From a virus, in IMG/VR virus record IMGVR_UViG_3300014695_000001, positions 1-7,565 of that record: a stretch of DNA of 7,565 bases; one strand, written 5' to 3'. The notes beneath the pieces are model-generated. The model saw only the letters and a program-made list of their open reading frames with translations. It did not search any database and had not been told where the DNA came from. A program made the translations under genes and the position numbers. Positions within the stretch are counted from its first letter, which is position 1. Each line of letters begins with the position of its first letter. This document shows positions 7,300 to 7,501 of the stretch, piece after piece.

Positions 7300-7316
7300 G
7301 CGCTTCGCATAATGGA
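7300..7316 (+). repeat. 17-bp direct repeat GCGCTTCGCATAATGGA, copy 1 (copy 2 at 7485-7501)
   Basis: Exact 17-mer repeated 185 bp downstream. Identity breaks at 7299/7484 and at 7317/7502. Confidence 0.95.
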
Positions 7317-7329
7317 GATTATGAAATGA
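7302..7329 (+). other. dif-like site C with canonical 11-6-11 layout
   Basis: GCTTCGCATAA-TGGAGA-TTATGAAATGA. The XerC arm matches E. coli dif at 9/11. The XerD arm matches at 6/11, with the inner half TTATG intact. Confidence 0.5.
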
Positions 7330-7484
7330 TCCTGACTTACGAGCTGGTCGATAACCCCGGCTACGAGTATGAAGACGAAGTTCAGACCCAGTTCGATGCG
7401 TGTATCAGGCTTCAGTCAATCGAACCGTTTTGTGTTTGGTGGCAACTGACGGATGGCTCTGGTGAGATTGTCATGTCGTCTTAG
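7326..7484 (+). CDS. Hypothetical acidic 52-aa protein (MILTYELVDNPGYEYEDEVQTQFDACIRLQSIEPFCVWWQLTDGSGEIVMSS)
   Basis: The ATG at 7326 is preceded by GGAG (7314-7317) with 8-nt spacing. The TAG stop at 7482-7484 lies directly before the second 17-bp repeat. Only the last 52 codons of the 170-aa track ORF lie outside zot and its terminator. Confidence 0.5.
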   Translation: MILTYELVDNPGYEYEDEVQTQFDACIRLQSIEPFCVWWQLTDGSGEIVMSS

Positions 7485-7501
7485 GCGCTTCGCATAATGG
7501 A
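7485..7501 (+). repeat. 17-bp direct repeat GCGCTTCGCATAATGGA, copy 2
   Basis: Identical to 7300-7316. It continues into the 80-bp wrap-around repeat. Confidence 0.95.

Follow-up and report, generated by a model that had tools for sequence, protein, structure and literature searches.

The segment between zot and the attachment site

The sequence analysed here, called the window below, is the whole 7,565-nt stretch of the IMG/VR virus record IMGVR_UViG_3300014695_000001. Its two ends overlap by 80 bp at 100% identity (repeat family D1), so that the genome is 7,485 bp long and either circular or tandem. Pfam matches among the nine open reading frames (ORFs) scanned were to a G2P-type Rep, a single-stranded-DNA-binding protein (ssDBP), Zot/pI and, weakly, a TspB-like protein; Rep, ssDBP and Zot together with the lack of an integrase domain in these nine ORFs identify the phage as an inovirus. 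Downstream of zot lies a 185-bp cassette that contains a single gene, orf52, and is bounded on both sides by an XerC-type arm; the right-hand arm belongs to the hairpin attachment site of the phage (Table 1). The cassette was found to be a discrete, optional unit whose reassortment is tied neither to the phage backbone nor to the hairpin module.

The 17-mer GCGCTTCGCATAATGGA occurs as an exact direct repeat at 7300-7316 and 7485-7501 (repeat family D14), as stated in a preliminary description of this DNA. The chance expectation is 0.01, two matches were obtained in 0 of 200 shuffled sequences, and allowing for up to three mismatches revealed no third copy in the window. Physically, the downstream copy and window positions 1-16 are one site.

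Between the repeats stands the 52-aa acidic ORF of the preliminary description, with its Shine-Dalgarno sequence, start codon and stop codon where that description had placed them. The ORF is conserved: 52 codons were counted in 27 of 27 alleles from related loci, the median ratio of nonsynonymous to synonymous substitution (dN/dS) is 0.145 and the variable sites are distributed 25/15/43 over the three codon positions. The constant length, the low dN/dS and the codon-position pattern indicate that orf52 is a real gene, and it is under purifying selection. Sequence searches of Pfam, PHROGs, PADLOC, NCBIfam and the PDB gave no hit, and the source annotations read 'hypothetical protein' throughout. 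The AlphaFold model is mediocre (predicted local distance difference test score, pLDDT, of 67; beta-beta-alpha-beta-beta), with no significant structural neighbour in a Foldseek search of the PDB (best E-value 0.87). An exhaustive hidden Markov model search yielded a small family of 52-57-aa proteins with the pattern M-I/L-L-S-Y-E-L-x-D-N-P-G…V-W…T-D-x-G; distant homologues were located among the small ORFs of tailed phages, one of them on a terminase-bearing contig. These relatives point to generic accessory cargo rather than to a Xer factor, and we infer that orf52 is carried as moron-type cargo.

In most backbones orf52 follows zot by about 20-40 nt; the window has an 81-nt spacer with a terminator-like stem-loop. 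A consensus scan of 7000-7565 called no terminators, Rfam gave no hit and no inverted repeat was found within 7313-7484. The CATAAT of the XerC arm was considered as a -10 box for orf52 and was rejected because the start site would then lie downstream of the Shine-Dalgarno sequence.

The left-hand arm, termed site C, had been described as the beginning of a canonically spaced dif-like site. Its XerC arm is unchanged in all 27 alleles except for one G>A substitution, and in relatives without the cassette the same arm joins the hairpin or the host dif directly. The 11-6-11 spacing, however, is a property of the allele in the window only: the stretch from GGAG to ATG contains 1-nt insertions and deletions among the alleles (TTACGAATG, TTATGAAATG, TTACGCAAATG), and the supposed XerD half is not conserved. 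That half, TTATGAAATGA, is identical to the host XerD arm TTATGTTAAAT at 6/11 positions, and the central region matches that of the host at 3/6, so that the comparison of 7313-7329 with the host dif proposed in the preliminary description revealed no close relationship. Judged by its pattern of variation, the right half of site C evolves as a ribosome-binding spacer between the Shine-Dalgarno sequence and the ATG and not as an XerD-binding arm. The central region of site C, starting with TGG, is closer to those of most phage hairpins (TGGATA, TGGGTA, TGGCCT) than to that of the host dif (TCTATA).

Table 1. Positions of the features in the window, counted from its first nucleotide.
Feature	Positions	Strand	Evidence or remarks
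185-bp cassette as exchange unit (central region, ORF, stop, right XerC arm)	7313..7497	+	Indel, megablast
Left XerC-type arm GCTTCGCATAA (site C)	7302..7312	+	With GC prefix and TGGA, forms the upstream 17-mer (7300-7316)
Central-like TGGAGA, then supposed XerD arm TTATGAAATGA overlapping the start codon	7313..7329	+	Shine-Dalgarno GGAG at 7314-7317
orf52, 52-aa acidic protein MILTYELVDNPGYEYEDEVQTQFDACIRLQSIEPFCVWWQLTDGSGEIVMSS	7326..7484	+	ATG at 7326; TAG stop at 7482-7484 abuts the second repeat
Right XerC arm, the XerC arm of the hairpin attachment site	7487..7497	+	Same as window 2-12; sequence, fold
Forked-hairpin attP(+), 5' part	7485..7565	+	Crosses the circular junction into 81-95; the whole hairpin is window 1-95
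Hairpin top strand: XerC arm, TGGATAACG, TTACGTTTAAT in this order	within 1-95	+	DNA fold; left junction of L002, host arm joined to TGGATAACGTTACG
Inverted dif-like site, hairpin 3' arm (ACAGCGCATAA CCAACG TTACATTAAAT on the minus strand)	66..93	-	Read from sequence; pairs with 7487-7517
zot (pI assembly ATPase), last backbone gene before the cassette	6025..7218	+	Pfam Zot, E = 2e-19
GC-rich stem-loop and U-rich tract, terminator-like, backbone-specific	7225..7264	+	RNA fold; not significant against shuffles
Terminal redundancy	1..80	.	Identical to 7486-7565, 100%

An optional unit with an XerC arm on both sides

About 60 related loci, denoted here by L numbers, were gathered by two pattern scans of IMG/VR and by look-ups of the orf52 protein. 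The cassette was present in about 30 phage or prophage contigs among them, with 74-100% identity; 27 different alleles, 184-187 bp long, were distinguished. When contigs were sampled solely by their hairpin, 13 of 39 carried it. The exact orf52 protein is encoded on six contigs. A metagenome scan with an 18-mer returned mostly chance matches and three true cassettes. Contigs L006 and L008, of 35-43 kb, contain the 17-mer without a cassette, probably as chance matches.

One reading in the preliminary description was that of a miniature cassette that comes and goes as a whole, and relatives that differ by exactly this segment were found. Between L011 and L041 the identity is 97% upstream and 100% downstream, and the two are distinguished by one clean 184-bp indel bounded by GGCGCTTCGCATAATG. 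Other pairs with and without the cassette are L001/L045 (100% identity over 300 nt upstream), L009/L042, L024-L025/L032 and L027/L033, and this exact presence or absence at the repeat boundary is seen on several backbones.

The cassette also reassorts independently of its flanks. In 51 pairs of loci the cassettes are at least 97% identical and the upstream sequences are unrelated; over the 199 nt that could be aligned, the cassettes of the window and of L001 show 100% identity. Conversely, L001 and L010 share 99% of their upstream sequence but have cassettes of only 79% identity, and the overall correlation is r = 0.12. In a megablast search with the window, matches to 13 loci began exactly at 7300 and ran to 7485, the end of the query, with none immediately upstream. 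The right arm varies in its outer bases (gcgg, gcgt), and these variants accompany the cassette allele through the contexts of hairpin type A, hairpin type C and host dif. This narrows the right-hand crossover down to TTCGCATAA, a stretch of about 9 nt whose end is the XerC cleavage point.

A local duplication could be suspected, or an artefact arising at the circular junction during assembly, because the 80-bp assembly overlap includes the downstream copy. The arm-ORF-arm structure nevertheless recurs in dozens of independent assemblies, isolate genomes included, and the duplication covers the arm alone, with a conserved foreign gene as the insert; we regard this explanation as scarcely credible, and the ordinary duplication considered in the preliminary description is set aside.

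In every readable upstream context the cassette lies directly downstream of an inovirus or, in L016, of another cassette. A solitary cassette at dif, recognizable by a junction of the host arm with TGGAG, was not seen in the viral, genome or metagenome hits, a limited sample. This bears on the idea of an autonomous miniature integrative mobile element that exploits Xer (IMEX), a 185-bp circle that would use site C as its attP and integrate by itself into dif or into the XerC-arm sites of phages. The order of central region, gene and XerC arm is exactly that expected after integration by XerC exchange, and identical copies are found in unrelated phages. Such an element is nonetheless unlikely, since no solitary copy at dif, apart from any other element, turned up in this sample, its putative attP combines a perfect XerC arm with a degenerate, variable XerD half (6/11 identical, indel-polymorphic among the 27 alleles) and a double-stranded circle of 185 bp would be strongly strained.

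Units of the same layout with other genes occupy the same junction. L016 and L031 are 99.7% identical over 600 nt upstream; L016 has an additional 243-bp unit at site C, before orf52 (minus strand, 6791-7033), with its own Shine-Dalgarno sequence, a 48-aa basic ORF MKVKRSRYANAERLRHLDGIWLPPKSWKIRLYKLLGKTAPDRWVGFKD and a TAG stop abutting GCGCTTCGCATAA. Cassettes of this layout can thus be stacked. In L118, whose backbone is 79-83% identical to the L007/L016/L031 group, a 456-bp unit lies between two XerC arms at the same junction (6109-6578); its 101-aa ORF (phrog_25043, function unknown) ends with a TAA stop, followed by G and then by the arm. With the L016 and L118 units beside orf52, the arm-ORF-stop-arm layout is common to three unrelated genes. 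A 67% homologue of the 48-aa ORF of L016 directly follows zot in L064, without an upstream arm, which hints that cassettes are derived from terminal phage genes.

Some further details of these junctions were recorded. The 5' part of the 243-bp unit of L016 contains TTATGTTTTCGG, which has the look of a scrambled hairpin remnant. The right arm of the L118 unit is followed by TGCTAT ATTAAGGAAAAT…, which is neither a hairpin nor a canonical dif half. In L004 (414-700) the right arm of the cassette is followed by TGGGCA and a 73-aa ORF, with no hairpin; the attachment site of this phage may have been lost or replaced. A link between the cassette and the first central bases of the hairpin (TGG versus TCG) was considered and no claim is made for it, as L016 and L017 are counter-examples and the samples are not independent.

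Integration at dif and movement of the cassette

The coding strand, presumably the packaged one, folds over 7485-7565 and 81-95 into a long hairpin (-30.6 kcal/mol, z = -6.0), in agreement with the earlier statement that the downstream 17-mer continues into a hairpin attachment site. An XerC-arm duplex (CGCATAA/TTATGCG) and an XerD-arm-like duplex are arranged around a 3-nt bulge at the central region. The top-strand arms are GCTTCGCATAA and TTACGTTTAAT, and the 3' arm of the hairpin is itself an inverted dif-like site with 11-6-11 spacing; the structure is a forked hairpin of two inverted dif-like sites with an unpaired central region. Five hairpin sequence types, that of the window and four others in relatives, have this one forked architecture.

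A scan of species-representative genomes identified Stutzerimonas kunmingensis, S. stutzeri and one Pseudomonadaceae metagenome-assembled genome (MAG) as hosts. L002 is the same phage as in the window in its integrated state, with the left junction host …TGTGAGTTCGCATAA joined to TGGATAACGTTACG…. L001 and L003 are different inoviruses, in which the host central region and XerD arm follow directly on the right XerC arm; at their right ends …TAGGCGCTTCGCATAA is joined to TCTATA TTATGTTAAAT, with host genes behind it. The attR of the phage in the window was not seen, and the right junctions come from these two prophages with other backbones. Left junctions thus consist of the host arm and the hairpin central region, and right junctions of the phage arm and TCTATA TTATGTTAAAT, which places the crossover at the border between XerC arm and central region. 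The right half of the host dif, read from the attR junctions, is TCTATA-TTATGTTAAAT, with a TGTATA central region in one MAG. L001 is a tandem array, and tandem and heterologous prophage arrays were found in L001, L013 and L042.

IMEXs of the CTX type have a single-stranded forked-hairpin attP(+), integrate at dif through XerC only, carry end repeats between units and give rise to origin-to-origin hybrid genomes, as in CTXphi/RS1. The phage fits every criterion for such an element that can be examined in sequence: no integrase domain was found among the nine ORFs scanned, the attachment site is dif-like, L002 and the right ends of related prophages show integration at the host dif with dif regenerated at one end, and the prophages (L002, L001, L013, L042) have the whole inverted repeat on the left, the phage XerC arm at the end and tandem arrays. 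By these features, the whole phage appears to integrate at the host dif through a CTX-type single-strand hairpin. Two phages follow each other directly in L042 (minus strand, 3068 and 10698), the first having a type-A hairpin and being joined at its XerC arm to the second, which has a type-B hairpin, and this heterologous array is the substrate needed for origin-to-origin hybrid genomes. Relatives in L041 (318) and L057 (1303) are integrated beside a different left flank (…GCATGTCTAACTTCGCATAA…), probably that of another host species or another dif context.

The preliminary description had also suggested that site C is an attR-like scar, made up of the phage XerC arm and a foreign or chromosomal central region and XerD arm, captured from an array; in the chromosomal form, host DNA beside dif would have been taken into the phage. 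A phage arm with a foreign right half does resemble attR, and arrays and origin-to-origin hybrids are plausible in this group. The right half of the host dif is, however, TCTATA or TGTATA followed by TTATGTTAAAT and not TGGAGA followed by TTATGAAATGA, the cassette bears no relation to the host DNA found right of dif, orf52 has its distant homologues in phages and tandem arrays regenerate the phage junction without a scar. A scar of host origin is accordingly very improbable. The foreign form of the same suggestion fares better, as the cassette may have been left behind by another element that had integrated at dif.

For the movement of the cassette we favour, with moderate confidence, exchange catalysed by XerC in dif-integrated arrays followed by rolling-circle packaging. 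Under this model 7313-7497 would be a discrete accessory cassette with one gene and no promoter, inserted into the hairpin attachment site where XerC cleaves it (CATAA/T). Strand exchange by host XerC between XerC-arm sites (site C, the hairpin and attR or dif) would lead to gain, loss or swap of the cassette, placing it behind different prophages or removing it from behind them. Rolling-circle replication from origin to origin, known from CTXphi/RS1 arrays, would then carry the new junction into a phage genome. The cassette would contribute no function in replication or packaging and would not be self-mobile. Recombination between the two repeats would leave a 7,300-bp genome with the junction …CAGTGCGCTTCGCATAA joined to TGGATAACG…. 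Since its central region starts with TGG and resembles those of most phage hairpins more than that of the host dif, site C could serve as a secondary landing site.

Several observations weigh against this model. The part assigned to Xer in moving the cassette is deduced from the position of the junctions, site C has no conserved XerD arm, and the XerC-first reactions known so far need bound XerD or an activation factor. Integration at site C predicts a tandem duplicate of arm and cassette ([arm]cas[arm]cas), and none was seen; a form of the exact backbone of the window without the cassette gave 0 hits in IMG/VR. The scan of 7000-7565 revealed no promoter-like site for orf52, whose expression is only predicted. 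The phages are, moreover, mosaics: comparison of the window with L001-L062 showed modules of 88-100% identity with edges at gene borders (approximately 330, 700, 1092, 1204, 1501, 1892, 3025, 3108, 3197 and 3731) that are not Xer sites, which implies that recombination in linkers without Xer is common in the family.

The main rival is an exchange at short homology or replication slippage. The cassette would then be an ordinary mosaic module, the conserved 13-20-nt XerC arm serving as a short stretch of homology for RecA-dependent recombination or for RecA-independent template switching or slippage during rolling-circle replication, without catalysis by Xer. The mosaicism at many non-Xer gene borders and the lack of a conserved XerD arm in site C suit this explanation, and loss of a segment flanked by 17-nt direct repeats at a distance of 185 bp is typical of slippage. 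The right-hand crossover, however, falls within about 9 nt at the XerC cleavage point in several independent contexts, too short a stretch for efficient RecA exchange. Slippage also accounts for loss of a cassette but not for foreign cassettes inserted at the same point (L016, L118), and it leaves the arm upstream of three unrelated genes unexplained. We consider this rival rather improbable, though it is the strongest of those weighed here.

The favoured model of XerC-catalysed exchange can be extended, as a tentative and somewhat doubtful proposal, to the XerC-arm junction of CTX-type inoviruses in general, which might act as an integron-like capture platform run by the host XerCD. In this extension, orf52, the 48-aa ORF of L016 and the 101-aa ORF of L118 would be inserted, stacked, swapped and lost, each bringing its own XerC arm, and site C would be a preferred secondary landing site of incoming hairpins.

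Related systems and further features of the genome

The phage resembles CTXphi/RS1 in its two inverted dif-like sites folding into a hairpin with a bulged central region, the attP(+) architecture described for CTXphi of Vibrio cholerae (PMC4246890). It also resembles them in its integration at dif, where the phage XerC arm regenerates dif on the right, and in its tandem and heterologous arrays, and the accessory gene between zot and the attachment site occupies the position of ctxAB in CTXphi. Unlike CTXphi/RS1, the window represents one packaged genome with two direct XerC-arm copies around a 185-bp unit without replication genes, whereas RS1 and the TLC satellites measure kilobases and have a Rep gene. 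A further difference is the host, Stutzerimonas, and no proteins or sites are common with CTXphi.

Modules of the pdif type have complete 28-bp XerC/XerD sites in inverted orientation and have been described on plasmids. Those of Acinetobacter are, in the available parts of two reports, small gene modules between Xer-type sites that occur in many contexts and are believed to be moved by XerCD (PMC7399989, PMC6449649). The cassette shares with them its occurrence in unrelated contexts, evident from the 51 pairs mentioned above, but it has direct repeats of the XerC half-site in place of inverted full sites, resides in a phage genome and is far smaller.

The likeness to integron cassettes is one of behaviour only. 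A promoterless single ORF is tightly enclosed between recombination sites, is optional, stackable (L016) and exchangeable between platforms, and has a folded single strand as recombination partner. Unlike integron cassettes, it is associated with no IntI, attI or attC (no inverted repeat in 7313-7484 and no integrase among the nine ORFs scanned); it is the phage that has the folded site, and XerCD of the host would act as recombinase.

In Vibrio inoviruses, accessory hypervariable regions (pHVRs) with an average length of about 1.9 kb and linked to xafT lie between zot and att, according to the part of the source available to us (PMC12715192). They represent the same genomic position and, as far as that part describes them, likewise a hotspot of accessory cargo in dif-integrating inoviruses; it mentions neither repeated XerC arms at their borders nor their exact presence or absence as units. 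Precedents for functional Xer sites without a good XerD arm and for small Xer-modulating genes beside attP are provided by the TLCphi-type attP with its degenerate XerD arm and by the Xer activation factors XafT and XafV encoded beside attP (PMC6744903; bioRxiv 10.64898/2026.06.12.731946). The orf52 protein has no detectable similarity to known families, and its relatives in tailed phages argue against a Xer-specific role.

The cassette thus appears, from its sequence, to fall outside every class compared: autonomous IMEX, pdif module and integron cassette. Elements known to exploit Xer are whole phages, satellites, genomic islands of several kilobases and plasmid pdif modules. If the proposed role of Xer is correct, no mobile unit associated with Xer would, to our knowledge, be smaller than this one-gene unit of 185 bp, which lies between XerC half-sites in a packaged phage genome. 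A minicassette of this kind, with half-sites as its borders and a phage genome as its location, is not described in the available parts of PMC12715192, bioRxiv 10.64898/2026.06.12.731946, PMC7399989 and PMC6449649.

The arrangement suggests that small genes can be traded between phages through the chromosome-resolving enzymes of the bacterium. If so, the attachment site of a single-stranded DNA phage would double as a gene-exchange joint, and accessory genes, such as those at the ctxAB position in CTXphi, would have a concrete route into and out of filamentous phages. The two XerC arms, at a distance of 185 bp, form a natural test substrate for the requirements of XerC, since one of them has a hairpin partner and the other lacks a good XerD arm. 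The ORFs of the three units (orf52, L016, L118) are uncharacterised candidates for factors of phage-host or phage-phage interaction.

No GenBank phage matched 7150-7565, even in distant mode, and the whole genome gave only partial matches of 85-90% to three cloacal-swab phages. Two ORFs adjoin the hairpin, a 93-aa ORF at 49-330 on the plus strand (phrog_13909) and a 215-aa ORF at 314-961 on the minus strand without a Pfam match; they hold the position of the Xer activation factors XafT/XafV in Vibrio IMEXs. The palindrome GTAACGTTAC is present in three exact copies (762-771, 1121-1130 and 1184-1193; chance expectation 0.13), two of which lie inside 28-nt direct repeats of the 1084-1560 intergenic region, and a copy with one mismatch is found in the XerD-arm part of the hairpin (near-copies at 16-25 and 7501-7510). 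It may be an operator at which a regulator of the phage binds and through which this regulator also reaches the attachment site.

The stretch 1788-1878, immediately before the rep gene, contains (GCAT)n palindromes (ATGCATGCATGCATGC) and repeated TGTGATTTGCAT boxes, which may be origin or operator elements; boundaries of mosaic modules cluster nearby at 1892-1895. The S. kunmingensis prophage L059 has two 411-aa ORFs of identical length 2,344 bp apart (2079-3314 and 4423-5658), presumably rep by their position, in an arrangement that resembles a tandem duplication of the replication/regulatory module, like an RS1-type satellite beside a full phage.

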